From contig JBBCAV010000405.1 of the NCBI GenBank assembly GCA_051382305.1, positions 1-35,640 of the forward strand: DNA of 35,640 nucleotides. Reading direction: 5' to 3'. A program made the translations under genes and the position numbers. The stretch is from Bdellovibrionota bacterium FG-2 (GTDB taxonomy: Bacteria; Bdellovibrionota; UBA1018). This document shows positions 6,759 through 25,728 of the stretch, one piece after another (positions within the stretch are counted from its first letter, which is position 1; the number at the start of each line of letters is the position of its first letter). Under the pieces are notes generated by a model. It was not told the origin of the DNA, ran no database searches, and saw nothing but the letters and a program-made list of their open reading frames with translations.

Positions 6759-8252
6759 ATGAATGTTTCATGGCAGAAAATCCGTCTCAGTGATCATCGT
6801 TTTCTCGCGCCGCTGCAGGATCTGTACGGCGATATTGAGGTGGAGAATTTCACCCAAGACGACTCCGGAAAAAATGCGCAGGAATTTTCGCGCATGGGCT
6901 GTGATGGCGTTATCACTTTGCGAGGACTGATTGGGGGTCGGTGGGTCGGAATCATCTATAATGATTTTCGGGTCAATGGCGGAAGTTTTGGAAAAGCCTG
7001 CGCGCTTCGGGCTACTGAGTTTGTCAGGGTGATGGACGCTCAAGGGTGCGCGCTAGTTTTCGCTCTTAATTCGCTTGGCCTTCGCATCATGGAGGGGCGC
7101 ACTGCCGCGCAAAATGCCTTCAGTCTTGTCCCCGCACTTAAAAAGTTTTCGAAAAACAACTTGCTGATCACCGTCACAATCGGGCGCTGCCTGGGTCTTG
7201 GCGCGATCCTGTTTGCGCTTGGAAAATACCGCATAGGAATCCGTGGTGGAGGCTTACTCAATCTTGCTGGCCCCGAAGTCATGCGGCTGTTCTTCGGTGC
7301 AAAGGTCGTTTTTGAAGAGCTCGCAAGTGTTGAACGCAACTTCGAACAGACGACATTGGTGCACGAGCTTTTGGCAGATAAAACAGTGGCGTTTAAGCGG
7401 ATTCGCCAGCTCGTGCTCGCGCCTCAAACTGAGGCGGGCCTGGATTTTCCGGAATCCGTAGTGGTGTCGGCGGCGATCCAGAAAAGTGATCCAAGACTTG
7501 TTTCAATCCTGAGCCAGGTCGGCGAAGTCCCTCTTGAAGTATTTGGCCAGCGCTCCGCCGTGGTGCGGGCTTTTATCGTAAAGAGGAAGAATCGAAGACT
7601 TGGCGTGCTGATCAATCCTCCCGGCAATGTTAACAATATGGTCACCTGTGCGACGCTGCAAAAGTATTCTGATGCTTTGGATTTTTTCAAGTCGTTGCGT
7701 TTGCCCGTGCTCTCATTCTTGGATGCACCTGGAATTGATCCGCGCGTGGAGCAGATGGACGGTAACATTCTGCAGAAGATCGTCGATGTGACTTCCCGTA
7801 TGATTGATTATCCTCATGGCCTGATGGGGGTCATGGTCGGCCGCGGTTTTGGAGGCTCTAATGTATTGGGTTTTCCAAAATGTTTTGGTTCCAATCGTGT
7901 AATTGCGCTCACGGGCGCTCAGATTGGCATCATGCATGAGAGCATTGTGGATCAGTTGCTTTCGGGATCGCCACGGTTACAAGAGCAGTGGGATAAGGCT
8001 CTAAGCGAACAGACACCGGACTTGAAGGATCTCCTTGCTGAAGGAATCATAGATGCCCTCATTGACCAAAGTGAGTTGGATGGGCAAGTCGAGATTTTTG
8101 TTAGAGGCTTGGAGTCTCCAGTAGTGCGCAGGCCGCAAGTCCCCCTCCTCCGGCGGCAACTAACAAAACACGTTGAGAGGCCTGAAGTGCTGGCCGCTGC
8201 AACAAAGAGTGGAGCGCGATCCCGACACTCGCCCCCGAAGTGTTCCCCGTAA
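6759..8252 (+). CDS. Acyl-CoA carboxylase beta-like carboxyltransferase (two CT domains), divergent
   Basis: NDFRVNGGSFG, NSLGLRIMEG (cf. DSGGARIQEG), LAGPEV, FLDAPG, GRGFGG; ATG 6759 preferred over TTG 6720 (-35 box). Confidence 0.85.
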   Translation: MNVSWQKIRLSDHRFLAPLQDLYGDIEVENFTQDDSGKNAQEFSRMGCDGVITLRGLIGGRWVGIIYNDFRVNGGSFGKACALRATEFVRVMDAQGCALVFALNSLGLRIMEGRTAAQNAFSLVPALKKFSKNNLLITVTIGRCLGLGAILFALGKYRIGIRGGGLLNLAGPEVMRLFFGAKVVFEELASVERNFEQTTLVHELLADKTVAFKRIRQLVLAPQTEAGLDFPESVVVSAAIQKSDPRLVSILSQVGEVPLEVFGQRSAVVRAFIVKRKNRRLGVLINPPGNVNNMVTCATLQKYSDALDFFKSLRLPVLSFLDAPGIDPRVEQMDGNILQKIVDVTSRMIDYPHGLMGVMVGRGFGGSNVLGFPKCFGSNRVIALTGAQIGIMHESIVDQLLSGSPRLQEQWDKALSEQTPDLKDLLAEGIIDALIDQSELDGQVEIFVRGLESPVVRRPQVPLLRRQLTKHVERPEVLAAATKSGARSRHSPPKCSP

Positions 8253-9135
8253 CTTGTACGGTTTCTATCACTTTGTCGGGTGAAATCGCCAATCTCAATC
8301 CCACCTCACGAATCAGATGCAAGTTCGCCTGATGCGGAACGAGCCAATTGATATCACTGATTTTGAGGCCCATCGTCGCAAGAAAGCGCGATGCGCTCTC
8401 GGCCATCCCTTCGACGGCTTTTAAGAAAAGCACGGCGCCTTTTTTCATTATTAAGAAATTATCTTCTGGATTCGGGTTGCGCGAATAGGGGAGCCGCGTG
8501 CCCCCGGCGGGAATGGAGATGATATCGGCCACGCTCCCGTCACTGAAAAGTTGGGAGGCAATATAGCGAAATGTTGCGCTCGCTGGATCCGCCGTAACCA
8601 CACATGCTGCCGCGCCATCGCCAAAGAGGGCCGTTGTTGCGAGGTCTTCACGACGCAAGAATTTAGAGCGAATGTCAGCGGCAATCAACAGTTGAGATTC
8701 ACCCGTGGCAGCACACATCGCCGTGGTTGTATGGAGGCCTGAAACAAAGCCCGCACAGGCCGCGCCTAAATCAAAGGCGCCTACGTTCTCTAACCCCAAT
8801 CGGTGCTGAACCAAAGGCGCGGTGGGCGGCGTCGGATAATCCCCAGAAATAGTGGCTAATACGAGTTGCCGAATCTTGGTCCGCTCCTCGGGATATTTTT
8901 CAAATAGGCTTGTGGCCGCCGCAAAGGCAAGATCCGAGCACGCTTGCTCATCGCTGGCCCAGTGACGTTTCTGAATTCCACTACGGTGTTCAATCCAGGA
9001 TCCCCTGATTTTGAGCGGTCGCTCGGCTCCCTCACTCATCCAAGCAATGAGAGCGTCATTATCGAGGGTTTCTTCCGGCAGAAAAGCCGCAGGGCCCTTG
9101 ATGAAAATGGGGGTGCTCGGTTGGTGTAGACTCAA
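8101..9135 (-). CDS. 3-oxoacyl-ACP synthase III (FabH-like) #1
   Basis: Triad AACAGF / PHQAN / GNTSGAS and LFGDGAAA; likely TTG start at 9135 coupled (TTGA) to the SDR stop. Confidence 0.92.
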   Translation of the reverse strand: MSLHQPSTPIFIKGPAAFLPEETLDNDALIAWMSEGAERPLKIRGSWIEHRSGIQKRHWASDEQACSDLAFAAATSLFEKYPEERTKIRQLVLATISGDYPTPPTAPLVQHRLGLENVGAFDLGAACAGFVSGLHTTTAMCAATGESQLLIAADIRSKFLRREDLATTALFGDGAAACVVTADPASATFRYIASQLFSDGSVADIISIPAGGTRLPYSRNPNPEDNFLIMKKGAVLFLKAVEGMAESASRFLATMGLKISDINWLVPHQANLHLIREVGLRLAISPDKVIETVQVTGNTSGASVGIALHSLLQRPALQASQRVLLVAAGGGGLAACALLETPSL

Positions 9136-9887
9136 GGTTCGCTGGCCCCATGCGCGCGAAACAGGGGCAGTCCGCCGCTGACGGTGACTACGGATCCATT
9201 CATGTAACTCGTAACCGAGAGCAGGGGATCGAAAGCTTCGGCCACTTGGTCTGGCTCTCCCAGCATGTTCGCCGGTATGATGCTGCTGGCGCGCGTGACG
9301 TATTCTTCGTTTTTCCAAAATCTTCGCGTTCGGGCAGTTTTGATGATTCCCGGGCGCACAATGTTGGAGAAGATCCCAAACTCCCCATAGTCCACGGCGA
9401 GATTCAGAAACAGGGCTTCGAGTGCTGCTTTGGATAGACAGTAGGCGCCGTATTTACTCATGCCCGTAACGCAAGCAACGCTTGAAACAAAGACGAGTCG
9501 TCCCCACTTTTTTTCCATCATGGAGGGTAAGACTTGCCTGATGAGCCAGGTGTTGCCAAAAACATTTTCCGAGATGTATTCGTCAAAATTTGCTTCAGAG
9601 ATCTCATGAAACCGGCGCAATTTGACCACGCGCGAAGCAGCATTCAGCACGACCGCATCGAGGCCTTGTTTTAGGAGTTCCGCAAAATCGGCATGGCTGG
9701 CTTTGGGATTGTTCAGATCAAAGACTAATCCCGTGACTGCAAGACCTTGGGCTTGATATCTTTCCAGGGTTTCTCGCAGGCTCTTTTCGGTTGAAGAAGT
9801 AAGGATCACTTGGTCGCCCATTTTGAGGCGGCGTTTGGTGAACGCCAGGCTGATATCTGAGGAACCTCCGGTGATCAGAATTTTCAT
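9132..9887 (-). CDS. SDR oxidoreductase, FabG-like ketoreductase
   Basis: ILITGGSSDIS, LNAA, FVSS, catalytic YCLSK, PGIIKT; ATGA overlap with the ACP gene. Confidence 0.9.
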   Translation of the reverse strand: MKILITGGSSDISLAFTKRRLKMGDQVILTSSTEKSLRETLERYQAQGLAVTGLVFDLNNPKASHADFAELLKQGLDAVVLNAASRVVKLRRFHEISEANFDEYISENVFGNTWLIRQVLPSMMEKKWGRLVFVSSVACVTGMSKYGAYCLSKAALEALFLNLAVDYGEFGIFSNIVRPGIIKTARTRRFWKNEEYVTRASSIIPANMLGEPDQVAEAFDPLLSVTSYMNGSVVTVSGGLPLFRAHGASEP

Positions 9888-10114
9888 ATTGCCCCCAGTT
9901 TTTGAAGAAACGCTTGTAAGGTATTTAGGCTTTCAAAGGTTTGATCTTCGATGCTTGCAGCGCGGATTTTTATTTTGAATTCCTTCTCAAGTTCGGAGAC
10001 GGTCATGACCGCCATGAGGCTGTCAAAACCAAAGTCCACTAAATTTTGAGAAGGGTCGTCGGGGAGTTCTTCGAGACCTGCGCGTTTGATGGCATCGCGA
10101 ATTCTTGGAATCAT
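9884..10114 (-). CDS. Acyl carrier protein
   Basis: 76 aa, GFDSL phosphopantetheine site, ELEKEFKIKI. Confidence 0.9.
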   Translation of the reverse strand: MIPRIRDAIKRAGLEELPDDPSQNLVDFGFDSLMAVMTVSELEKEFKIKIRAASIEDQTFESLNTLQAFLQKLGAI

Positions 10115-10123
10115 GCCCTGAGG

Positions 10124-11398
10124 TTACCTCAATCGACGGGCGGGTGTCTTTAATTTTTTCAGTTCGGTTCGCATAAGTTTTCCGCTCGCATTTCGAGGCA
10201 GGGCCTGGATGAGGTAGATTTCTCGGGGTATCTTGTTGGGGGAAAGATTGTCCGAAATTTGGGCGAGAACTTTGTTTTTTTCGAGAATGACAGACGCAAT
10301 CAGGAACGCCGAAATCTTACTCCCGTACATTTGATCGTCTTCGATAAGTACAGCAGCATCAGTGACATCTGGAATATTTTTTAGTACTTGTTCAATCTCA
10401 GAGGGCCCGGTTCGCTCGCCGCCAACATTGAAAAGTTCGTCGATGCGTCCCGTGATTGAAACGAGACTCCCGTTGGATGTTTCAGGGGAAATTTCAGCAA
10501 GGTCGCCTGTATGAAGCCAGCCGTCTTCTAGTTTCTTAGCCGTTGTTTCAGGGTCGCCTAGGTAGCCCAGCATGATTTGGCTCCCGCGGACTTGAAGCTC
10601 GCCATCCGTGCCGAGTCGCACCTGCGTATCCCCGATAGGATAACCCACTCCGCGTTTGAAAAACGCAGGGTCGCGACTGGAGAAACATAGGATTCTTGGT
10701 GAGGCTTCTGTTTGACCGTAGTTGTTGTAAATCGTCGCCCGCGGAAATCTCTCGCGGAGGCGTTCACGCAGGCTCAAAGATAGCGGAGCGCCGGCCGAAA
10801 TGATATGTGTGATTTCGCTCTTGCCCGAATGAGTGGGCTCCGTGATTTTCAAAATCATTTCCCAGTGCGAAGGGACGCCACTCCACATGCCTGTTGCCGA
10901 CCCCCCGTCAAAGCAGCCTTTGATGTCAGTCATTTTAGTGAGGATGCGTGTGGGGATCTTGCATTGAAGTGCAGGCAGGAGTTGGCCTAAAAGACCATAG
11001 CAGTAGGAGAGGGGGAGAAAAAGTGTTTGCTCGCGAGCGGATATAAAATCCAACGACGCGATCACGCCTCGAGTGTTGGCCTCAATATTTTTGCGTGAGA
11101 GTTGAACAGCTTTGGGGGTGCCAGTGCTACCTGAGGTAAACAAAATGACGGCTGTTTCATGATGGCAAGGCGTTTGAAGGAGCGCTGCGCGGGATTGCGT
11201 TTCTGCAACGCTCCACTGGGGAGAAAAAATGGCGGCCGGACGACCTGTCTCGAGACAGGCGAGAAACTGGACAATAAAATCAAGAGTAGGCGTTGCGGTG
11301 AGGATCTGAACGCCTTTATGGGGTACAGTTTCCGTTCGCACCCTATTTTGAAGTTCTTCAAATGTGACGTTTTCTTTACCGCAGATCAACGCTATCAT
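10124..11398 (-). CDS. ANL-family adenylate-forming enzyme (acyl-CoA/ACP ligase), compact
   Basis: FTSGSTGTPK, YGQTE, LHTGDL, GRIDELFNVGGE, PRNASGK. Confidence 0.92.
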   Translation of the reverse strand: MIALICGKENVTFEELQNRVRTETVPHKGVQILTATPTLDFIVQFLACLETGRPAAIFSPQWSVAETQSRAALLQTPCHHETAVILFTSGSTGTPKAVQLSRKNIEANTRGVIASLDFISAREQTLFLPLSYCYGLLGQLLPALQCKIPTRILTKMTDIKGCFDGGSATGMWSGVPSHWEMILKITEPTHSGKSEITHIISAGAPLSLSLRERLRERFPRATIYNNYGQTEASPRILCFSSRDPAFFKRGVGYPIGDTQVRLGTDGELQVRGSQIMLGYLGDPETTAKKLEDGWLHTGDLAEISPETSNGSLVSITGRIDELFNVGGERTGPSEIEQVLKNIPDVTDAAVLIEDDQMYGSKISAFLIASVILEKNKVLAQISDNLSPNKIPREIYLIQALPRNASGKLMRTELKKLKTPARRLR

Positions 11399-11435
11399 TG
11401 AGAGCAATTATGAAGGTTTTGACTCCAAGTCTCAA
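11393..11435. promoter_or_regulatory. Overlapping divergent promoters embedded in the two start regions
   Basis: Minus: TTGAGA(11435-30)-17-CATAAT(11412-07), 8 nt before ATG 11398. Plus: TATCAT(11393-98), no clear -35. Confidence 0.5.
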
Positions 11436-12495
11436 ACTAAATATCAAAGGATTCGGGCGCGCTTGGCCTGAGGGGGCGGCCATCACAAATTTGGCCTTGC
11501 TCGAGCAACATCCGGATACGGCCGCGCAGCCCAAACCGTTTCTAGAGGAACTCGCAAAACGAGTGGCGCGAATATATGGTTTTAGTGAGCGCTACCTCAC
11601 GCATTTCCCGGGGACGCCTTTTTCGGCCGTAGAAGAAACGTCTGAGTCTTTGTGCTTAAAGGCTGTGAAGAAGGCGCTCGGCGTCGGGGCTGTTATCGGG
11701 AGCGTGCTTGCAGGCACGCCAGAGGCTTTTGTTCTTGGAACGACAACGACCCGCCGCTATACGGGATCCCAGGCAACTTCGGTTCTCGGAAACTTTGATC
11801 TTCAGATCCCGGCCTACGAGATCAAGGCTGGGTGTTCGACGTCGCTGGCGAGTTTGCACTTTGCGCAGGCGTTGTTTGCGCAGGGCTACGAGAGTGTGCT
11901 GGTGAGTTGTGCGGAGACATTGTCGAAAGTTATCAACCCGGCTGTTCGCGAAACGTGGTTTGGCCTAGCTGATGGCGGAGCGGCAATTTGGCTAGGGAAG
12001 GCGTCTGAGGGATGCCAAGAAGGCGGGGGGGCGAGTAGGGCTCAGTTCGAAATTCTCAAATCCGTTTACTCAACCCATGGAAAATACGTTGACATGTATA
12101 CCACCCAAGGCGATTTGCCTCCTCGCGCTGAAACGCTTGAGGCAGGCGGATATTATTTGAGCGGGGATTCTTCGGAGCTTAGAGAGATTGCGAAAAAGCA
12201 TTACCTCGCAATGATTGAGGCGCTTTTGCCGGAGGAAAGAGATCGCAAGGCAATCACCCAGATTATTCCACATCAAGTGAATCGTGAACTCATTGATCAG
12301 GTGGTTCGCGAGACGGGGCTGGGGGGAAAGTTAAACTGGAGTGCCGGAGAATTTGGAAACCTTGGGGGCGCTTCCGTGCTCTTTACTTTATCTCAGGCGC
12401 TTGAGGAAAATCGGTTTAAAGCTGGAGATCTGATTTTGTTGATGAGTGTGGGAGGGGGCCTGTCGTTTGCCGCGCAGCTCTGGCGGTGGGGTTGA
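11410..12495 (+). CDS. 3-oxoacyl-ACP synthase III-like enzyme #2, divergent
   Basis: Triad KAGCSTS / PHQVN / GNLGGAS; LADGGAA; GDLILLMSVGGGL. Confidence 0.88.
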   Translation: MKVLTPSLKLNIKGFGRAWPEGAAITNLALLEQHPDTAAQPKPFLEELAKRVARIYGFSERYLTHFPGTPFSAVEETSESLCLKAVKKALGVGAVIGSVLAGTPEAFVLGTTTTRRYTGSQATSVLGNFDLQIPAYEIKAGCSTSLASLHFAQALFAQGYESVLVSCAETLSKVINPAVRETWFGLADGGAAIWLGKASEGCQEGGGASRAQFEILKSVYSTHGKYVDMYTTQGDLPPRAETLEAGGYYLSGDSSELREIAKKHYLAMIEALLPEERDRKAITQIIPHQVNRELIDQVVRETGLGGKLNWSAGEFGNLGGASVLFTLSQALEENRFKAGDLILLMSVGGGLSFAAQLWRWG

Positions 12496-12631
12496 AAAAG
12501 TTAGGGCACCTGATTAGTCCATAATTCGATCCTACGATCTGGATTCCATAGACCTTTCTAGTTAATTTGGGCGCAAGCTGGGTCCATATCTTGCTTTATG
12601 GTCCAGAACAATCTAAATACTCAGGAGCCAT

Positions 12632-13045
12632 ATGCCAAAAAAGAACGTTGCCAAAAAGACTGATGCGACACCCAGTTTTCTGTCCAGTGCCAAAGACCTC
12701 CCTGCAACTCAGGGAATGCTGCAACTCGTGCGCGCTGAGCTTAAGGCTGATATTCGAAGTTTAAGTTCGGAAATGAAGGCGGGTTTTAATCAAATCGACT
12801 CTAAGTTCAGTCAGGTTGATTCTAAGTTCAGTCAGGTTGACTCAAGATTTAATCAAGTCGACTCGAAACTTGAACGTGTCCTTTCCGATGTCGCGCGAAT
12901 CGGGGTCATAGTCGAAGAACAGAATGCAAATAACCGTGTGGTCTTGGAAGGCTTAACTGGATTTTGGCAACGCCAAGAACGGGTTGAAACGCGGGTCGAT
13001 GAATGGGAGAAACTGCTACGTTCTATTGCGCAACTGAGACCGTAG
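12632..13045 (+). CDS. Coiled-coil heptad-repeat hypothetical protein
   Basis: SD AGGAG; four F(N/S)Q(I/V)DS(K/R) heptads. Confidence 0.75.
   Translation: MPKKNVAKKTDATPSFLSSAKDLPATQGMLQLVRAELKADIRSLSSEMKAGFNQIDSKFSQVDSKFSQVDSRFNQVDSKLERVLSDVARIGVIVEEQNANNRVVLEGLTGFWQRQERVETRVDEWEKLLRSIAQLRP
12785..12868 (+). repeat. 4 x 21-bp coding tandem repeat
   Basis: tttaatcaaatcgactctaag / ttcagtcaggttgattctaag / ttcagtcaggttgactcaaga / tttaatcaagtcgactcgaaa. Confidence 0.9.
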
Positions 13046-13071
13046 AATGGCTTGGCACTGCAAGACAGTCT

Positions 13072-13740
13072 TCAATTCAACTGCCCATCTCTCATCTCAA
13101 GTCTTCGCGAAACCCGATCGACTAATTTGCCGTCATGAGTCGAAAATAAAAAAGTCACCTTGAACTCCTGATTAAGCCGCTCAAAAAGTTCGATCAGCTG
13201 ATAGGCGGTTTTTGAATCGAGGTTTGCCGTGGGTTCGTCGGCAAAAACGATGTCGGGTTGAGTCGCCAGGGCACGGGCGACGGCGACGCGTTGCTGCTGT
13301 CCCCCACTGAGTTGGGAGGGGAGTCTCGCGAGTTTATCGCCTAGCCCCACAGTCCTAAGGGCATCTGTGGCGCGGGCTCTCGCCTGTGTCCGATCATCGC
13401 CGCGCATGACGCTTGTGTATTCGACATTTTCAACGGCCGTGAGCACGGGAAAAAGATTGTAGGATTGAAAAACGAAGCCCAGGTGCTTGCGCCTAAAGAG
13501 GCAAAGCTGTTTTTGAGAGAGATGCACAATCGATTGGCCCGCAATCAGAATGTCACCACGGGTGGGGCGGTCCAGGCCAGAAGCGAGATTGAGCAGCGAC
13601 GTTTTGCCGCTGCCCGATGGCCCCATTAATGCCGCAAAAACACCACGCTCCAGGCAAAAAGAAACCCGGTCCACGGCCTGAACCGGGGGTTCGCCGGGGT
13701 AGGTTTTTTCGATATTGCGGAACTCAAGAACTTGCGGCAT
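13072..13740 (-). CDS. ABC transporter ATP-binding protein, LolD/MacB type
   Basis: GPSGSGKT, LGFVFQSYNL, LSGGQQQR, ADEPTANLD, STHD. Confidence 0.95.
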   Translation of the reverse strand: MPQVLEFRNIEKTYPGEPPVQAVDRVSFCLERGVFAALMGPSGSGKTSLLNLASGLDRPTRGDILIAGQSIVHLSQKQLCLFRRKHLGFVFQSYNLFPVLTAVENVEYTSVMRGDDRTQARARATDALRTVGLGDKLARLPSQLSGGQQQRVAVARALATQPDIVFADEPTANLDSKTAYQLIELFERLNQEFKVTFLFSTHDGKLVDRVSRRLEMRDGQLN

Positions 13741-13809
13741 TGGACTTCCAGTATATCTTTATTATTGCCCAGTTTCCAGAGCGGTGTGATTTGTGCTTAA
13801 ATCATTTAA

Positions 13810-15042
13810 ATGCTTCTGATTGCCAAGATTGCCTATCGTAACTTGATCCGTCATTTGCGCCGTACTGTGCTTACGGTTGCGAGTATATCGTTTGGGTTAG
13901 CTGTTATTTTGTGGTTGCAGTGCCTGTTGGCGGGGCGCAATCAAACGATTATTAAGTCAATTACCTCGACCTATATTGGCCAGGTTCAAGTCTTTAAAAA
14001 AGAGTATCTCAAAGACCGCGTGATAAATTTCACTTTTCCGGGTGTGCCTCCAGGATTTGCCGAGATGCTACCTCAAGGCTCACATTTTAGCCCCCGGATG
14101 CATTTGCCGGCCCTTGTGTCTAGTGGGGAGGCGTCGACTCCGATTGTGCTTGAAGGAATTGAGCCCGAAGCCGAGAGCGCGATCACGACGATTCGGACAA
14201 GCTTAAAAGAGGGCGCTTTTTTAGATCCCGATCCGACTCCTGATTGTCAGTCTCGCCAGATATACATTGGGAAGGCGATGGCGGACCTTTTGAATGTCAA
14301 AGTGGGAAACAAGATCGTGATCTTGGCGCAAGCCACAGATGGCAGTCTGGGGAACGATCTTTTTAGAGTCAAAGGAATCTATGATAGCGGCTCGCCACAA
14401 TTTAATAAAACCTTTGCGTTTGCCCCGGCGAGTTGTGTGAAAAAAGTTGGGGTCTTGGCGGGCATCCATGAAATCACGATTCAGTTGCCGACGGAAGTGA
14501 GCGACACGCGGGTGCAGGAAATTCTCAAAGCCCATTTGCCTCCCGAATTTACGGTTACGACCTGGAGGCAGGCGGTGCCGAATATGGCGGCGATGGTTAA
14601 GTTTAACGATGCCATGCTGCTGATGATTTCGACGATCTTGTTTACGGTCATCACTTTTGGGATCGTCAATTCGCTTCTCATGAGCGTCTTTGAAAGAACG
14701 CGGGAATTCGGCACGATGATTTCGCTGGGTACGACTCCAGGCCAAGTGCGAACGATGGTCGTGGCTGAAAGTCTATTTATGGCGCTGGCGTCTGCACTCT
14801 TCGGTATCGTGCTCGGAGGGGCGGCCGTTCTCTACCATCAAAAATTCGGTTTTGATTTGCGGCCCTTTTTGGGAGAAGCCAAGTCGATTGATAATTTCCA
14901 GCTCGAACTCACGATTTATCCGGCGTTTGAGTTTATTGCGTTCTTGAAAGCGACGTTTGTCACGATCTTTGTCGTTCTTTGTGCGGGACTTTATCCTGCG
15001 ATTCGTGCATCAAAGCTTAATCCGCATGACGCGATGAGATGA
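13810..15042 (+). CDS. ABC permease, FtsX/LolC-E type
   Basis: IAYRNLIRHLRRTVLT, large periplasmic domain, SVFERTREFG, YPAIRASKLNP. Confidence 0.93.
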   Translation: MLLIAKIAYRNLIRHLRRTVLTVASISFGLAVILWLQCLLAGRNQTIIKSITSTYIGQVQVFKKEYLKDRVINFTFPGVPPGFAEMLPQGSHFSPRMHLPALVSSGEASTPIVLEGIEPEAESAITTIRTSLKEGAFLDPDPTPDCQSRQIYIGKAMADLLNVKVGNKIVILAQATDGSLGNDLFRVKGIYDSGSPQFNKTFAFAPASCVKKVGVLAGIHEITIQLPTEVSDTRVQEILKAHLPPEFTVTTWRQAVPNMAAMVKFNDAMLLMISTILFTVITFGIVNSLLMSVFERTREFGTMISLGTTPGQVRTMVVAESLFMALASALFGIVLGGAAVLYHQKFGFDLRPFLGEAKSIDNFQLELTIYPAFEFIAFLKATFVTIFVVLCAGLYPAIRASKLNPHDAMR

Positions 15043-15064
15043 TTCTATTAGAGGGACTTGAAAG

Positions 15065-15811
15065 ATGATAAAACTCATACTTTTTACGTTTTTGTTCGGG
15101 CATGCCGCTTGGGCCTCACCCGCCGATGATCTCGTGGCGAAGTCCGAAGTTCAAACCCGTGGGAAAACCTTTCAGGGTGAAGTCACGATGCAGGTTGAGC
15201 GCGGGGACGCAAAACGGACGATGGTGATGAATATCATGAGTGTGGGGCGTGAGAAGGCCTATGTAAAGATCAGAAAACCTTCAAAAGACCGAGATTCTGG
15301 CAATTTAAGGCTTGATCTGAATTTGTGGCAATACTTGGCGAACATCGAGAGAGTAATCAAGATCCCCCCGAGTATGATGCTGCAGAGCTGGATGGGCTCG
15401 GATTTTACGAATGATGATCTCGTCAAATCCAGCAGTTTGAGTGCGGATTACACCCATAAAATTCTCGCACGAGAGCCCCGGTCCGGATTTTCGGCGGTAA
15501 AAATCGAATGTATTCCAAAGCCTGATGCCCCGGTGGTTTGGGGGAAAATTATTCTTTGGGTTCGAGACAAAGACGCGGTTCCTCTAGCACAAGAATTTTA
15601 TGCAGAGGGCGGGGAGTTGCTTAAGCAGATGGAGGGGCAGGAGATCAAAACGTTTGGTACTCACACGATTCCTACGACACTGGTCATGAAGAACCTAAAA
15701 AACCCAAGTAGCAAAGACTCCAAAACGACCATGCATTATGACAAAGTGGTCTTTGATGAACCCCTCAAGGATTCGGTGTTTACTCAGGAAAATCTTCGGA
15801 AACCGCTGTGA
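15065..15811 (+). CDS. Outer-membrane lipoprotein-sorting protein (LolA-like)
   Basis: Signal peptide; RVIKIPPSMMLQSWMGSDFTNDDL; C-terminal FTQENL. Confidence 0.88.
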   Translation: MIKLILFTFLFGHAAWASPADDLVAKSEVQTRGKTFQGEVTMQVERGDAKRTMVMNIMSVGREKAYVKIRKPSKDRDSGNLRLDLNLWQYLANIERVIKIPPSMMLQSWMGSDFTNDDLVKSSSLSADYTHKILAREPRSGFSAVKIECIPKPDAPVVWGKIILWVRDKDAVPLAQEFYAEGGELLKQMEGQEIKTFGTHTIPTTLVMKNLKNPSSKDSKTTMHYDKVVFDEPLKDSVFTQENLRKPL

Positions 15812-16905
15812 CGCTGTCTGCTTGGGTGATCATCCTTAATGTCGGATTGAACTTCATTTACGGGGTGATGCTGCCGCTCATTCCAACGTTAAATGTAGAG
15901 AATGCAGGCTTTGCGTTTTCGGCCTTTGCCTTAGCTAAGGTTTTTTGCCTGCCTTTTGCGGGGATCATTGGGGATCGCATTGGACACTCGCGCGGGCTCG
16001 CACTCACATTAATCTTGCAGGTTGTTGCGCTTATATGCATGCTGGTTTTGCCAGAGTTTGCCTGGATCGGGCGGATCTTTGAAGGCGCGGCTCTTGCGCA
16101 AGGAATGGTGTCCGCGGTTTCACTGCTTCGTATCAAAACCTCCGATCCCATGCATTTCTCCAAATCTATTTCCAGACTCATGAGTGGCGGGGCGCTAGGG
16201 TTCATTGTTGGGCCTTTGTTGGGGTATCTGCTTTTGCCGTGGGGTTCGACGCTTATTCTGCTTATTTTGCTCGGAGTTTCTGGTGTATTGTTGGGGGCGC
16301 ATCTTTTACGTTTTGTCACTTTGGAGGCCCCTGTAGCGGCGGCTCAAGAGAGTGTGCCGCGTATGCCTCGCATGCCTCGCATGAATGTAGAGTTCTTTGA
16401 TCGCTCGATGTTGTTCACTGTTTTAGGTTTTGCCGCAGCCAAAGTTCTTGGAGTAGGGCTTCAGCCGAATCTCGCTTGGTGGGCCAATCATGACGTGGGT
16501 CTAAGTGCGACGCTCTCGGGGGCGAGTTTCATCTTGATGGGCGTTGGATTTGCGGTAGGTGCCGCCAAACAGTTTCGGGGGTTTGGTTATCTTCCGATAT
16601 TGGGTTTGTTGTTCTTGGAACTGGCGATTCACGGACAGCCCGCATTTTGGTGGGGGGCCGTACCACTGCTTGGATATTGGTTTGGCTGCTACGTGACCAC
16701 TGCCGTGTCAAAGTTGGGTTGGAATCGGCCGGAAAATATTGGGCGATTTAATTCGAAGTGGATGCTTTTTACTGATTTTCCGATGGCACTCGTTCCCATG
16801 CTCGTTTGGCAATGGCGGGCGCCCGAGCCTTCGGCATCAAGGTTGCTCTTTGAGTTAGGGTTTGCCGTACTGGCCCTTTCGGGGCTTTCTCGCCGTAACA
16901 GATAG
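15808..16905 (+). CDS. MFS transporter, divergent
   Basis: Motif A-like GIIGDRIGHSR, GRIFEG, GFIVGPLLG; many TM helices; GTGA coupling. Confidence 0.82.
   Translation: MTLSAWVIILNVGLNFIYGVMLPLIPTLNVENAGFAFSAFALAKVFCLPFAGIIGDRIGHSRGLALTLILQVVALICMLVLPEFAWIGRIFEGAALAQGMVSAVSLLRIKTSDPMHFSKSISRLMSGGALGFIVGPLLGYLLLPWGSTLILLILLGVSGVLLGAHLLRFVTLEAPVAAAQESVPRMPRMPRMNVEFFDRSMLFTVLGFAAAKVLGVGLQPNLAWWANHDVGLSATLSGASFILMGVGFAVGAAKQFRGFGYLPILGLLFLELAIHGQPAFWWGAVPLLGYWFGCYVTTAVSKLGWNRPENIGRFNSKWMLFTDFPMALVPMLVWQWRAPEPSASRLLFELGFAVLALSGLSRRNR
16357..16383 (+). repeat. 3 x 9-bp coding repeat (PRM)3 in the MFS central loop
   Basis: ccgcgtatg cctcgcatg cctcgcatg. Confidence 0.8.
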
Positions 16906-16924
16906 GCCTATGAGGGAGATATTG

Positions 16925-18481
16925 ATGTTCACACGAATACTAGTCCTAGGCAGTACTTGGCTCAAATATCGCGCGTTTGTGCGTGATACTCAAGATCCGA
17001 TCAAAGCCAAAACGCGCGTTTGGAAAGAGACCTGGAATGAAATCCGGGACGCTCCGTATTGGAGGCAGAGGTTCCCTGCGAGTCATCCGGGTTCAAAGCT
17101 TGAAGATTTTGAGCTGACGAGCTTTGAAGACTACCGAGAGGCATTGGATGAGTCGTTTCAAGGCGAGCTTTCGAAGATTTCAGGAAAGAAGATCCTATTC
17201 TGGTCGGAGAGTTCCGCCACTTCTGGTCGGCGCAAACTGTTTCCCATCACGCCCCTTTATCGGGAACAGTTCCAGCGCACGACGGCGCCGCTTTTGCACA
17301 GTTTTGCGCGTGAGTTTACCGGATTTTTGGGGAAACCTGTCTTGTATTTTGCGGGAATGCTGCCTTCGGAGCGCTCACCCGCTGGGATTGATATGGGGTT
17401 CATCAGCAACTTCAATTATCGGCATATTCCTAAGGCACTTCAAAAACATTATGCGTTTCCACTTGAGGTGTTTCGCAATTGGGAAACGTTTTCAAATTGG
17501 GCCGGGCTGTATGCGGTTGCAGGTGATTTGTCGGCGATGATTGGAATTTCTCCATCGGTCATTGAGATTTTTGCGGAGAATCTGGAGCGAAGAATCGAGG
17601 AATTCTGGCCTTACCTTGAAGGAACGCGCCAGCCGCCTGCGCCCTTTCCGCCCATCCAATGCGGCCCTGCTCGTTTGGCGCTCTTGAAGAAGGCATTTGC
17701 AAAGAAGCCCTTTTCTTTTCGTGAGGTCTGGCCATCTCTTCAGTTCGTTTGCTGTTGGAAGACAGCCGGTTGCTCCATGCAACTGCCGAAATTGGAGCGA
17801 TACTTGGGAGGGGTGCCGACGGTGGATGCGACCTATTCAGCAACCGAAGGCTGGGTCAATGTGCCGCTCAATCCAAGATCGGTGGGTGGGCCCATTCATC
17901 CGGGGGCTCACATTTTTGAGTTTCTCAAAGTCGTGGGCGCATTTGCAGATGCGCCTGCCGCAGTCCCGAGAAAAGAAGACCTAAAACAGTGCTGGGAGTT
18001 GGAGATCGGCGCAAGTTATGAAATCGTTTTGACGACGGCTATGGGATTGATTCGATATCGTCTTGGGGATTTTGTTAAATGCACGGGCTATTTTAACCGC
18101 ACGGCGGTGATTGAATTTACGCAAAAAGGCAATAATGAGGTGAGGCTTGGGCTCACGGGGATTTCGGAGGCGCAGTTAATTGAAGCTATGAAAAAAACGG
18201 ATTTTGCGGTTTCAGGGCGCTGGATTTTTGGGCCGAACAAGGAGGGGGATCGGTTGGTGTTTTATTGCGAAAAAGTGACGTCGGCGATTCAGGCTGCGAT
18301 CCCCAAAATTCATGATGCCCTGTTGGCAATGAATCGGTACTACGCACGTGACATTACGAGGGGCTTACTTAAGTCAGTTGAGATTCAGGAATTGCCGGCC
18401 GGACACGCCATTTTTGGCGTACTTGTGCATTCCCAGTCCAAGCCCAAGATCCTGGCACTGAATCCTCCGGGAGAATTTTGA
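16925..18481 (+). CDS. GH3-family acyl-acid amido synthetase
   Basis: GH3 motifs SSATSGRRKLFP, YSATEG, GLIRYRLGD; SD GAGGGAG before ATG 16925. Confidence 0.88.
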   Translation: MFTRILVLGSTWLKYRAFVRDTQDPIKAKTRVWKETWNEIRDAPYWRQRFPASHPGSKLEDFELTSFEDYREALDESFQGELSKISGKKILFWSESSATSGRRKLFPITPLYREQFQRTTAPLLHSFAREFTGFLGKPVLYFAGMLPSERSPAGIDMGFISNFNYRHIPKALQKHYAFPLEVFRNWETFSNWAGLYAVAGDLSAMIGISPSVIEIFAENLERRIEEFWPYLEGTRQPPAPFPPIQCGPARLALLKKAFAKKPFSFREVWPSLQFVCCWKTAGCSMQLPKLERYLGGVPTVDATYSATEGWVNVPLNPRSVGGPIHPGAHIFEFLKVVGAFADAPAAVPRKEDLKQCWELEIGASYEIVLTTAMGLIRYRLGDFVKCTGYFNRTAVIEFTQKGNNEVRLGLTGISEAQLIEAMKKTDFAVSGRWIFGPNKEGDRLVFYCEKVTSAIQAAIPKIHDALLAMNRYYARDITRGLLKSVEIQELPAGHAIFGVLVHSQSKPKILALNPPGEF

Positions 18482-18485
18482 GTCG

Positions 18486-19661
18486 CTAAAAGTAATATTT
18501 CAATCCCGCCGCCAGTTGCAGAGGCGCGCCGATTGCGCGGCCATCAGGAAACGTAAAGGTGTGAGCGCTTAACTCAGCACCCTTCGTACCCAACGGGAGC
18601 TGGGCGGTGAAATAAACCTCGGAATTATCGCTGAGCGAGTGCGTGAGGTTGGGGACGAACAAGAGGCTTCGATCAAAGAGATTGATCAGTGCGCCGCCCG
18701 TGAGAATCCAAAAGGCTGAGAGGTTATGGGTTAACTGCGCATATCCGTAAGCGCGGCCCCGCAGGTTTCTAAAACGTGAATCGATGCTAAGTGTATAATC
18801 TTTAGAATTTGCAACCCCGTGACTTAGATAAAGAAACTCTACAAGGGTGGCCCATTTTTCATTCAGAGCGAGCTCACCTCCGAGACCTGCTTGAAACTCC
18901 TGATCGTGAACCCAAAGCGACTCGCCCCGCAGAGTCATCCCGGAAATGTCTTTGGAAAAGGCGAGGCCCGAGACGCTTTTCTCCCACCATTGAGAGAAGA
19001 GCGCATGAAATTCGAGTTCAGGGTTATACCAGGTGAATTCACCGGCTCGCACAGCATCGGCAGAGGTCGGTCCTTCGAGATCAAATAGCTGAACATTGTA
19101 ATTTTTAAATTGGGTTCGGAAACCTGCAATATCTTGGCTAAAGACTAAAGCGGGTCCTGCGGCATTGGGCAGGGGTCGGGTGAATTTGTTCCATACGGGC
19201 AAGACTTTGAGGACGCCCAGGCTTAGCGGCTTTCGTCCGGCGTAGATTTCAAATGTTTTCTCAGCGTACGACGCGTTGAGTTTTTCAAAATCCCCAATCC
19301 AATAATTGTTCGTGTTTGAAAAAAATTTAAAATCTAGATTCATGAAACGCGAGGGTGCGATGACTGTGAGGCGTGCGGCGTCGGCCAAGGGGACTGAGGC
19401 GCCGGGGCTGCGCAATCCGCGAATCTCGGGACGGACTTCTAGTTGAAAACCAGATTCTCGAGCGCGCAGCTGGGATCCCACGACACACCAGCCATCGAAG
19501 GTGGAATCAAGGGTGGAAAACCCGGTTTGGTGGAGCCTGCGATAGTCCCCAAAGAACAGCGCATCGCTGCGACTTTCAAATTCTACAGCGCTTAAGGGCA
19601 GCGCTGCGAGGCTTGCGGCTAGTAAAAGTCCTAAGATCTCGAGAATCAGAGCTGTTTTCAC
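18486..19661 (-). CDS. Outer-membrane beta-barrel protein, probable partner of the LolA-like/ABC system
   Basis: Signal peptide from GTG 19661, amphipathic strands, C-terminal LKYYF. Confidence 0.75.
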   Translation of the reverse strand: MKTALILEILGLLLAASLAALPLSAVEFESRSDALFFGDYRRLHQTGFSTLDSTFDGWCVVGSQLRARESGFQLEVRPEIRGLRSPGASVPLADAARLTVIAPSRFMNLDFKFFSNTNNYWIGDFEKLNASYAEKTFEIYAGRKPLSLGVLKVLPVWNKFTRPLPNAAGPALVFSQDIAGFRTQFKNYNVQLFDLEGPTSADAVRAGEFTWYNPELEFHALFSQWWEKSVSGLAFSKDISGMTLRGESLWVHDQEFQAGLGGELALNEKWATLVEFLYLSHGVANSKDYTLSIDSRFRNLRGRAYGYAQLTHNLSAFWILTGGALINLFDRSLLFVPNLTHSLSDNSEVYFTAQLPLGTKGAELSAHTFTFPDGRAIGAPLQLAAGLKYYF

Positions 19662-19669
19662 GTGCGCCC

Positions 19670-19741
19670 ACGTTACCAAGCGGCAAGCAGGGTGTCAAAG
19701 TGGGTTATCGACTTGCGGCATTTCAGCCATTCTTTTATAGT
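19670..19741. promoter_or_regulatory. Divergent sigma70 promoters
   Basis: Minus: TTGACA(19698-93)-17-TAACGT(19675-70) with TGn. Plus: TTGCGG(19713-18)-17-TATAGT(19736-41). Confidence 0.6.
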
Positions 19742-19773
19742 CTAGCATCCAAACAAATTGAGGGACTAATTAT

Positions 19774-20595
19774 ATGACCAAGAACCACTCCGGCCCTCCC
19801 CCCGTCATTTTGCTTCTTCAAGACGCGCTCTTTTTCTCCGTCGCGGCTTTTTCTCACGGACCCGCCCTGTACTCTTGCTTTCGACTGTTCACTGAAGCGG
19901 AAGCCCGCGGAGTTTCGATGTGGGCGGTCTTGCCCTTCTCGCTGGTGGTTTATCCTTTGGTAACGCTTTTCATTCTATGCGGGCTGGATCGATTGATTCC
20001 TCGTGTTCCCGAAGGTCGCCACAAATTGGGCGGCCGGATCTTTATTTTTTGGGGCCTGCATCTTATTATTTACCGCGCGGCCAGACTGCCGCCGCTGACG
20101 TGGCTCGTGCGGTATTCGAATGTTTTGCGTTTTGTTTGGCTTAACGGTTTAGGTGCCAAGGTTTCTTTTCGCGCGCAACTCAGCGGGGATGTGAATGTGC
20201 TGGATCACAGGCCTCTCGCCATTGGTGCGGGTGCAGTGATCGGGAGCGAGACCTTGATCTCCACCCACATTGTGATGGGAGACTCGCTGCGGGTGGGTGC
20301 CGTGACGGTGGCTGCTGGCGCGCTCGTAGGAGGGCGTTGCGTCCTTGGGCCGGGCTCGACAGTGGGCGCAGGTGCTACAGTTATGTTAGGCGCTGAAGTG
20401 GGAATGGGTTCTACCATTGGTCCCGGCGCGCTGTTGCGAGCGCATTGCGTGGTGGATAGCAAAGTGGATGTGGGCGCGGGAGCAACGCTTGAGGCGTTTA
20501 CCTATGTGCCGCCCAAAACGATTATTCCCGCTGGCGAGCGCTGGGGTGGAATTCCTGCTCGTCGGTTATCGGAGGCCTCCCTTGAAACCCAGTGA
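19774..20595 (+). CDS. Membrane-anchored left-handed beta-helix (hexapeptide) acyltransferase-like protein
   Basis: N-terminal TM helices, LGAKV, many [IV]GxGA hexapeptides, terminal WGGIPAR. Confidence 0.82.
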   Translation: MTKNHSGPPPVILLLQDALFFSVAAFSHGPALYSCFRLFTEAEARGVSMWAVLPFSLVVYPLVTLFILCGLDRLIPRVPEGRHKLGGRIFIFWGLHLIIYRAARLPPLTWLVRYSNVLRFVWLNGLGAKVSFRAQLSGDVNVLDHRPLAIGAGAVIGSETLISTHIVMGDSLRVGAVTVAAGALVGGRCVLGPGSTVGAGATVMLGAEVGMGSTIGPGALLRAHCVVDSKVDVGAGATLEAFTYVPPKTIIPAGERWGGIPARRLSEASLETQ

Positions 20596-24153: not shown

Positions 24154-24579
24154 CTAGACGGGGAGAATTCTGACAAACCCAGCCTGTCCATAGGCTTTGA
24201 TTCTCGAATCATCGGTCACCAAAACTGCACCCAATTTTCTTGCGGTTGCGACCAAAATCCGATCGGCCGGATCGCCGTGAAACTCCCCCGGCAGCCGCGT
24301 GCTCTCAACTGAGATTTCTGGCAGCAACGGCGCGAATGAGATTCCGGGTGCCGCCAACGCCTGCTCCACCCAGTCCAAGCAAGACATCGGAAAATTTAGA
24401 CGTTGTTTAGCCTCCAGCATGGCGACTTCCCAAACGGAGATTGCAGCAACTTTCAAGGAATTTGCTTTTGAAGCTCTCTCAATGAACGCAAGACTTTTTG
24501 AATGCGCTAGTCTTTGGTTTCCATCAATGAGCCAAATCCAAACATGAGTATCCAGCAGAATTAGGTCAGTTTTCGACAT
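24154..24579 (-). CDS. vapC: VapC PIN-domain toxin #1
   Basis: LLDTHVWIW, SVWE, HGDPADRILVATA, VTDD. Confidence 0.93.
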   Translation of the reverse strand: MSKTDLILLDTHVWIWLIDGNQRLAHSKSLAFIERASKANSLKVAAISVWEVAMLEAKQRLNFPMSCLDWVEQALAAPGISFAPLLPEISVESTRLPGEFHGDPADRILVATARKLGAVLVTDDSRIKAYGQAGFVRILPV

Positions 24580-24796
24580 CCCACTTTTCTCCGACCGGCC
24601 CGATGATGTCACCGTGAATTGATACTGAGCCCTTTAGAAAACCAAAAACAGGTGGCGTGCGTTCATCGCCTTCAACAGGAACGAGCTTAGCTACGGGTTT
24701 GCCATACTTGGTCACGGTCACTTCTTCATGGTTTTTCTGAATATCGTCCATGATGCTCAAACACTTGGCTTTGAATTTTCCAGCAGCGATTTTCAT
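24566..24796 (-). CDS. Phd/YefM-family antitoxin
   Basis: MKIAAGKFKAKCL...VTKYGKPVAKLVP; overlaps the toxin start. Confidence 0.92.
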   Translation of the reverse strand: MKIAAGKFKAKCLSIMDDIQKNHEEVTVTKYGKPVAKLVPVEGDERTPPVFGFLKGSVSIHGDIIGPVGEKWDVEN

Positions 24797-24823
24797 AGGG
24801 ACTCATACCTGCCTTCAATAATA

Positions 24824-24852
24824 ATGGTATCATGGTCATAACTAATGGTCAA
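24824..24852 (-). promoter_or_regulatory. TA promoter with repeated operator-like sites
   Basis: TTGACC-17-TACCAT with TGn; TGACCAT occurs twice. Confidence 0.7.
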
Positions 24853-25051
24853 GATATAAATGTTAAGAAATATGGCGATATTACCTGTAGCGCGACAGGC
24901 TCGCAGTTGCGCGAAGACTTCATACACATTCAGTATTCAAGGGATATACCACCGCTAAATGAAGCAGGCTTGTTCTGGGGTCGTTTCGCTGTCTTTGAGG
25001 TGATGGAGTGTCTAGGATTTGGGCAGCCTGGGGGCTCGTTAAGGTCGCTCT

Positions 25052-25079
25052 ATTCGCGATAACTTATCTTATCGCGAAT
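25052..25079. repeat. Perfect 11-bp inverted repeat with 6-nt loop
   Basis: ATTCGCGATAA-CTTATC-TTATCGCGAAT. Confidence 0.8.
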
Positions 25080-25138
25080 GAAAATACGCAAGATGACAGG
25101 GGAACGGAAACCGATTTCCCAGAAAAACTATTCAAGAT

Positions 25139-25519
25139 CTATTGGCGAATAATGTGAACATCTGCGATATCGGCAAAATCATTATCTAGCGTAAGCAAGA
25201 GGGCTCCGGCTAATTGGGCATGAGCAAGTACAATACTATTAGCCATGGCCAATCCTTTTTGAAGTGCGATATCCGCCGCAGCCAGCGCTATTTCCCGGGT
25301 CATATCTACAACATCATGTTGGCTTAGGAGTGCGATTGCTGCGAGCGCCTGATCTTCTGATCGACACGCCGCTATTTTTTTGTAAACTTCGAAAAGAATA
25401 AGAGTTGGAACGGTAATTTTTTGCGCGTTTTTTATGGCGTTGGTGCATTCTTTATGGAGTGGCCCTTTGTTAAAGAGTTCGATCCAAACGGAAGAATCCA
25501 AGACGAGGCACGAATTCAA
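25139..25519 (-). CDS. vapC: VapC PIN-domain toxin #2 (third acidic residue appears as Asn)
   Basis: VLDSSVWIE, LFEV, LAMANS, TLDNDF. Confidence 0.9.
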   Translation of the reverse strand: MNSCLVLDSSVWIELFNKGPLHKECTNAIKNAQKITVPTLILFEVYKKIAACRSEDQALAAIALLSQHDVVDMTREIALAAADIALQKGLAMANSIVLAHAQLAGALLLTLDNDFADIADVHIIRQ

Positions 25520-25728
25520 AGGGAGCGATCCTTCTTTTCACGTAGGTTTTTCCTGTCCAAGCTATGGGCCAGTTCATCCTGAATCGCTTCAAGTGTCTGG
25601 AGCGGCACAAGATAGGCCACTTTTCCCTTGGCAATAACTTCAATTTGCGATCCTGCTCGAATGCCGAGCGCCGTCCGCACGGCTTCAGGGATAACGACTT
25701 GGTATTTTGGAGAGACTTTCACCGTCAT
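25516..25728 (-). CDS. AbrB/MazE/SpoVT-family antitoxin
   Basis: VKVSPKYQVVIPEAVRTALGIRAG; 4-bp overlap with the toxin. Confidence 0.92.
   Translation of the reverse strand: MTVKVSPKYQVVIPEAVRTALGIRAGSQIEVIAKGKVAYLVPLQTLEAIQDELAHSLDRKNLREKKDRSL

Follow-up and report, generated by a model that had tools for sequence, protein, structure and literature searches.

Positions 6759-20595 of a 35,640-nucleotide stretch of Bdellovibrionota bacterium FG-2 (contig JBBCAV010000405.1; this whole stretch is called the window) hold a gene cluster that is very probably, on sequence comparison, a Bdellovibrionota variant of the legionellol (lol/bbc) family, which in Legionella makes the sliding surfactant. 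Two β-ketoacyl-acyl carrier protein synthase III enzymes (KAS III types A and B, or KAS_A and KAS_B), a short-chain dehydrogenase/reductase (SDR), an acyl carrier protein (ACP), an AMP-ligase, a GH3 acyl-adenylate enzyme and a membrane-anchored hexapeptide (LbH) acyltransferase-like protein are orthologous to Legionella proteins, and their genes are syntenic. The pathway type is already known and is not a new system; what is new here is a lineage-specific exporter and a reduced starter arm. As to the product, we lean modestly toward an ACP-tethered pathway that would make and export an amino-lipid with an ornithine or arginine head group and two acyl chains. The original prediction, made from the sequence alone, had recognised no described cluster here, a claim overturned by the close match to the characterised lol1-10 (36-53% identity in six enzymes). 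The locus and its relatives place the legionellol family in at least four phyla and allow a minimal core to be defined by comparison. Two overlooked core genes, for the ACP and the LbH protein, are added, the latter a candidate for an unexplained acylation step, and the window, coming from a non-pathogen, offers a compact form of the cluster suited to working out the chemistry.

The legionellol cluster lol1-10 (lpg2225-2234) encodes a GH3 enzyme, acyl-CoA dehydrogenase, carboxylase, KAS III, two acyl-activating enzymes, a reductase, a second KAS III, ACP and a major facilitator superfamily (MFS) transporter (PMC5640695). These genes belong to the wider bbc region lpg2223-41, as described in PMC5126622. 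The authors reported no substantially similar clusters outside Legionella (PMC5640695), and a search of the open-access literature found no description of this cluster outside that genus. The reference locus used here, L029, is from L. pneumophila subsp. fraseri. Its open reading frames (ORFs) of 509, 563, 479, 353, 581, 472, 250, 336 and 75 amino acids (aa) match the lengths in Table 1 of PMC5640695 (472 vs 464 in the table). The primers published there for lpg2228 and lpg2225 map to the 353-aa KAS and the GH3 gene of L029 with three mismatches each, none expected by chance, and the lpg2228 5' primer lands at the start of the ORF that matches KAS_B.

Identity to L029 is 53% for KAS_A (341 aa, to the 336-aa ORF), 51% for the SDR, 47% for KAS_B, 45% for the ligase (438 columns), 42% for the ACP (L029:2210-2509), 36% for GH3 (510 aa) and 31% for the LbH protein (150 aa). 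Cross-matches between the KAS_A and KAS_B types reach only 24-25%. In a tree of 67 rows (34 of the 66 related loci sampled, quick IQ-TREE search), KAS_A and KAS_B each group with their Legionella counterparts, in clades of 22 rows (support 100) and 25 rows (support 99) respectively. Both clades are separate from the FabH-like paralogues of the same genome, and the nearest tree neighbours are Bdellovibrionota metagenome-assembled genomes. The GH3 enzyme behaves in the same way in a FastTree tree, where it groups with 24 of the loci L014-L060 in a 25-row clade of support 100. The run ligase-ACP-SDR-KAS_A has the same order and strand in the window and in L. pneumophila. A carboxyltransferase (CT) and an MFS transporter are likewise present in both clusters.

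Conservation of this core extends well beyond the reference locus. A GH3 search found 116 proteins among 8000 scored candidates, carrying Bdellovibrionota and many Legionella names, and an alignment-based contig scan gave 66 related loci where a single-protein scan gave none. The close GH3 group comprises 47 of these (L014-L060); after five shorter than 15 kb were dropped, 42 long loci remained, of which 28 are from Legionella or close kin and are not independent. Among the 42, the LbH gene occurs in 41, KAS_B in 40 and both KAS genes in 37 (three misses are flank cut-offs); KAS_B, ligase, ACP and SDR are found together in 37. Since KAS_B lies near this type of GH3 in 40 of the 42, the grouping of the genes is not due to chance, and the prediction of a co-conserved cluster for an exported lipid, in which GH3 travels with the KAS block, holds. 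In a sample of 401 genomes of the phylum (it overlaps the locus scan, so the counts are not independent), GH3 matches were found in 13 (E 1e-30) and KAS_B matches in 8 (E 1e-40), the latter being exactly the genomes with the closest GH3. Neither the ACP gene between ligase and SDR nor that for LbH, located immediately after GH3 in many Legionella loci, appears in the published lol table; both belong to the core. The full 13-gene set recurs in G003, G195, G256 and the metagenome locus L088. In G253 and G402 the contigs end before the set is complete; in G392 and G395 the block has no transport module.

Other lineages carry variations on this theme. In Acidobacteriota, L044, L047, L055 and L057 combine the core with a radical SAM/SPASM enzyme and their own transport genes; L044, L055 and L057 also have a reducing type I polyketide synthase (PKS), and a phosphopantetheinyl transferase (PPTase) was identified in L057. 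The Gemmatimonadota loci L073-L077 and L079, with a more distant GH3 and both KAS III types, form a further branch of the family and have the window type of CT, a hexapeptide gene and MMPL where the contig allows. L017 and L060 have the close GH3 and LbH gene without the KAS block, which suggests that these two enzymes can function as a unit on their own.

The catalytic residues of the core enzymes (Table 1) are well conserved, and the intact C-H-N triads ascribed earlier to both FabH-like enzymes are confirmed. In KAS_A the Cys, His and Asn are kept in 41, 41 and 40 of 41 aligned family members; in KAS_B the figures are 44, 43 and 44 of 44, and R116 is also invariant. The predicted KAS_B model has the FabH fold (mean pLDDT 88.6, at about 21% identity). 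The KAS_A start is TTG, inferred from the overlap with the SDR stop. The SDR cofactor motif, TGGSSDI, is atypical and is common to the whole family, while the D, S and L residues of the ACP are invariant in 41 of 41. CT aligns with family members from Bdellovibrionota, Acidobacteriota and Gemmatimonadota, and its nearest solved relatives are acyl-CoA carboxylase beta chains. No biotin partner for it was found inside the cluster; three biotin carboxylase domains are encoded elsewhere in the genome. The C-terminal tail of CT is antisense to the 3' end of KAS_A over 152 bp.

Table 1. Genes at positions 6759-20595 of the window
Feature	Position	Strand	Remarks
Carboxyltransferase (CT)	6759-8252	+	PF01039; divergent family, not a lol3 orthologue
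KAS III 'A' (KAS_A)	8101-9135	-	lol8/lpg2232 orthologue; triad C127-H268-N298
SDR ketoreductase	9132-9887	-	lol7/lpg2231 orthologue; YxxxK intact
ACP	9884-10114	-	PF00550; DSL motif, Ser32
AMP-ligase	10124-11398	-	lol6/lpg2230 orthologue; adenylation motifs conserved
KAS III 'B' (KAS_B)	11410-12495	+	lol4/lpg2228 orthologue; triad C142-H288-N317
137-aa coiled-coil-like insertion	12632-13045	+	short internal repeat; outside conserved cluster
LolD/MacB-type ABC ATPase	13072-13740	-	best NCBIfam match LolD, below cut-off
FtsX/MacB-type permease	13810-15042	+	Pfam
LolA-like periplasmic protein	15065-15811	+	PF17131
MFS transporter, Bdellovibrionota cluster type	15808-16905	+	Pfam; in 6/9 Bdellovibrionota loci
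GH3 acyl-adenylate enzyme	16910-18481	+	lol1/lpg2225 orthologue; motifs II, III intact
Probable outer-membrane barrel	18486-19679	-	DUF1302-like lead; start uncertain
Membrane-anchored hexapeptide (LbH) acyltransferase-like protein	19774-20595	+	core gene; D144, H165 invariant (alignment)

The window also departs from Legionella in its transport genes. The ABC/FtsX/LolA-like/barrel module is added to a set of genes that are scrambled across strands. The window-type set was found in 4 of 9 Bdellovibrionota loci, and none of 31 Legionella-type loci has it; a search of three Legionella genomes gave no PF17131 protein (for one of them the matches are a minimum). The window MFS matched 0 of 5 Legionella-type genomes, a comparison with no positive control, and lol10 lies outside the loci covered. 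In four Bdellovibrionota loci the ABC ATPase is 66-68% identical, the permease 58-60% and the barrel protein (in four cluster loci) 39-42%. The barrel protein has no Pfam match; its look-alikes in the ESM Atlas score 0.98 and include a cluster with DUF1302 in 41% of its members, so that its identity as a barrel is a supported lead. The module resembles canonical Lol (LolCDE/LolA/LolB) in pairing a MacB/FtsX-type ABC transporter with a periplasmic protein of LolA fold. It differs in scoring below the cut-offs (LolD 217 vs 308 bits, LolC/E 106 vs 362), in having a PF17131 protein, one permease and a barrel in place of LolB, and in being mobile and present in a minority of genomes. A literature search on what the LolA-like/DUF1302 module does yielded no useful lead.

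Relatives of the LolA-like protein occur in 74 of the 401 phylum genomes, and barrel matches in 17, of which 5 are in the cluster and 12 outside it. In nine of the 12 outside loci, where a scan took in 64 of 102 ORFs but not the transport genes and some ORFs at the edges, FtsX, LolA-like and barrel genes always occur together, none has a KAS_B orthologue, and five adjoin other lipid enzymes (desaturase/hydroxylase, KAS III or GH3). Independent travel of GH3 and the transport genes had been named beforehand as an argument against a common system; the transport genes do travel in this way, GH3 does not. Acidobacteriota versions have a distinct LolA-like/FtsX/ABC set together with the reducing PKS, and other versions have MMPL. 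The transport module is accessory, and a stable core with swappable starter and export arms points to an exported lipid. In L129, L130 and L132 the same module lies beside a different KAS III with an NAD-dependent epimerase/3-beta-HSD gene and/or a gene of metallo-beta-lactamase fold, probably another, uncharacterised lipid cluster.

Most of what can be said of the product comes from Legionella. Knockout of lpg2228, the KAS_B orthologue, abolishes both sliding and the metabolite series, 13C5-ornithine labelling leads to incorporation of all five carbons, and the acylated forms, which carry hydroxy-C12/C14 chains, restore sliding best (PMC5640695). The surfactant aids spreading, an activity separable from interspecies killing (PMC6598767), and is described as TolC-dependent (PMC6598767, PMC5126622). 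By formula, the diagnostic ions at m/z 133 and 175 match ornithine and arginine in protonated form. C23H42N2O7 corresponds to a C18H32O6 acid combined with ornithine, and 458.3 plus hydroxy-C14 gives 684.5, the acyl form used in PMC5640695. We infer that this mass pattern is that of an acyloxyacyl amino-lipid.

A route to such a molecule can be proposed from the gene content. The ligase might activate the acyl starter, or fatty-acid synthesis might supply it, because the starter arm of Legionella, consisting of a fatty acyl-AMP ligase (FAAL, lol5) and an acyl-CoA dehydrogenase (lol2), is absent. The two KAS III enzymes would lengthen the ACP-bound chain through decarboxylative condensation, using an extender that CT supplies or trims, and the SDR would reduce the ketone to give an oxygenated acyl chain. 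An adenylating enzyme, either the ligase or GH3, would then join the chain to ornithine or arginine. The LbH protein is the best candidate for the second acylation, since known LbH enzymes, LpxA/LpxD among them, use ACP as the donor of the hydroxyacyl chains that they transfer; bound to the membrane, it would add a hydroxy-fatty acyl chain. TIGR02353, which describes the Pls/PosA terminal domain, matches 24 of 24 LbH family members, all far below cut-off; a literature search on Pls C domains added nothing useful. MFS and the ABC/FtsX/LolA-like/barrel module might carry the amphiphilic product as far as, or through, the outer membrane, and it could serve there as a surfactant or surface lipid. 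More tentatively, the core could build acyloxyacyl-type amino-lipids, headed by ornithine or arginine and carrying a custom C18 oxygenated chain, by a route not recognised before; it would be common to Legionella, Bdellovibrionota, Acidobacteriota and Myxococcota and fitted with swappable starter and export modules. The legionellol structure would then be mis-assigned and the LbH protein, encoded beyond the cluster limits as published, would be the missing acyltransferase that makes the active surfactant.

Several observations weigh against an amino-lipid made and exported in this manner. The published NMR table contains no carbonyl carbon, and an aromatic polyol was assigned, not an amide (PMC5640695). 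The dehydrated triol proposed by the authors also fits the fragment data by formula, and mass spectrometry cannot decide between the two assignments. That NMR structure may itself include detergent: 11 of the 23 carbon shifts (156.3, 141.8, 127.2, 113.9, 69.5, 66.9, 61.7, 56.8, 37.9, 32.0 and 31.9), recorded on a sample of <0.5 mg, appear to lie near those of an octylphenol-ethoxylate detergent; a literature search for reference shifts found nothing. The LbH protein model, with a helical, membrane-like N-terminus, is poorly resolved; it had no Foldseek match at E 0.001, and its best VIA match (Z 7.9, rmsd ~10) is among middling LbH-type matches only, with no convincing match to a solved acyltransferase. 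PPTase was not found in this genome, which is 85% complete, and all genome-wide absences must be read against that figure. CT is only 25% identical to Legionella CT (lol3) over 208 aa and belongs to a separate family. FAAL and acyl-CoA dehydrogenase, which occur in 28 of 28 Legionella-type long loci, are missing from the cluster, as is the second ACP (lol9), and the genome holds only paralogues of the former two at 22-27% identity. With this starter arm gone and a different CT, the product of the window need not equal legionellol. The occurrence of the transport module without the pathway is a further difficulty.

The role of GH3 has also become less certain. Knockout of the Legionella GH3 left legionellol unchanged (PMC5640695), which weakens the earlier proposal that GH3 amidates the chain and favours the ligase as the amide-forming enzyme, or redundancy. 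The window enzyme carries Ala103 in motif I, at a position occupied by Gly in 45 of 46 sequences. There is a bacterial precedent in OlsH of Singulisphaera acidiphila, a GH3 protein that makes N-acyl-ornithine (PMC12493201). The likenesses to the OlsH/OlsI pathway are a bacterial GH3 as candidate ATP-dependent N-acylating enzyme followed by a second acylation step, the ornithine head group (suggested for legionellol by the Legionella mass data), and the presence of three GH3 nucleotide-binding motifs, one with the Gly-to-Ala change in the window. The differences are that OlsH takes free fatty acids and has no KAS/ACP block, and that its O-acyltransferase is an alpha/beta-hydrolase; no hydrolase was found among the cluster proteins of the window. 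The orders listed for OlsH homologues in the review PMC12971839 include neither Legionellales nor Bdellovibrionota orders.

The OlsH precedent raises the possibility, in our view unlikely, that the chemistry is as proposed and the product, instead of being released as a surfactant, is a structural envelope amino-lipid that the LolA-like module places in the outer membrane. The OlsH-type product is a membrane ornithine lipid (PMC12493201), no OlsB/F-type PF13444 protein was found in the genome, and related transport modules adjoin lipid genes at the five outside loci noted above. In Legionella, however, the product of the orthologous cluster is secreted and promotes sliding (PMC5640695), and the cluster is patchy, with KAS_B in only 8 of the 401 phylum genomes and not found in a same-genus genome. 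A more improbable alternative takes the published legionellol scaffold as right, so that the core would make a polyketide-like polyol and GH3 would have a side role or none. The NMR-based structure and the neutral GH3 knockout (PMC5640695) are in its favor. Against it, the authors were unable to relate the structure to the gene set (PMC5640695), the conserved core is without aromatic-ring, methyltransferase or hydroxylase genes, and GH3 has been retained with intact motifs over several phyla.

The amino-lipid route also has to be compared with head-to-head condensation of the Ole/Lst type to a beta-lactone or olefin, which had been offered, along with PqsA-D, as an analogy for the cluster and which we regard as very improbable. 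The lipstatin/Ole systems are built from the same kinds of parts (two KAS III enzymes plus ligase, reductase and carboxyltransferase), and OleABCD, LstA-D and PqsBCD share with the window FabH-fold condensing enzymes accompanied by ligase and reductase. The analogies are distant in sequence, though, and the window has a dedicated ACP, GH3 and LbH. Among the solved matches, OleA-type entries (including 3row) rank low: for KAS_A, BioZ is best (E 5e-46), followed by FabH (3e-42), with OleA-type entries near the bottom (6e-10). The PRK09258 model, presumably the OleA family, gives 77 and 35 bits vs a cut-off of 285. Both KAS III keep full C-H-N triads, and there is no conserved Glu in the loop that holds the catalytic base in OleA. 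Slimmer still is the chance that the locus is a decaying remnant and that its transport genes are passengers with no link to the pathway or form an importer. In favor are the solitary occurrence of the module in 12 of the 17 barrel genomes and, in the window, the insertion, the displaced LbH gene and the altered GH3 motif I. None of the 13 genes is disrupted, nevertheless, and the full set recurs in other genomes.

The gene content is otherwise largely as originally listed. Pfam/NCBIfam matches cover the carboxyltransferase, two KAS III, SDR, ACP, AMP-ligase, ABC ATPase, FtsX/MacB permease, PF17131 LolA-like protein, MFS, GH3 and the hexapeptide protein, and every gene named at the outset is present without internal stops. 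Two of the 14 ORFs had been left out, the core hexapeptide gene and the insertion, which is not core; two more copies of the 137-aa protein are encoded in the genome, and 0 of the 66 related loci carry one. The genes do lie close together as proposed, in a span of 13.8 kb, not about 13 kb, and in seven alternating strand blocks; they are not one operon. Two pairs of starts are head to head, 11398/11410 (ligase/KAS_B) 11 bp apart and 13740/13810 (ABC ATPase/permease) 69 bp apart, and the ligase/KAS_B gap is similarly short in relatives (14-92 bp at 8 loci). Promoter-like sites from a weak scan end 9-11 bp 5' of the ATGs of CT, ligase and ABC ATPase, which weakly suggests leaderless or overlapping transcripts for these genes. 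The scan gave 14 sites vs 8.5 ± 2.8 in shuffles, and a terminator scan, also weak, 22 vs 19.3.

The GC content of the cluster (~0.51) is the same as that of the remainder of the window. The left flank consists of housekeeping genes (RNase III, Era, Der, TPR, BamB-like) and the right flank of a Ser/Thr kinase and a hybrid histidine kinase. Further to the right, two PIN-domain (VapC-like) genes with small ORFs beside them (24154-25728) are probably toxin-antitoxin pairs. An acetate-CoA ligase (27507-29361, minus strand) is split into two overlapping ORFs (464 and 184 aa) by a frameshift or an error in the assembly.

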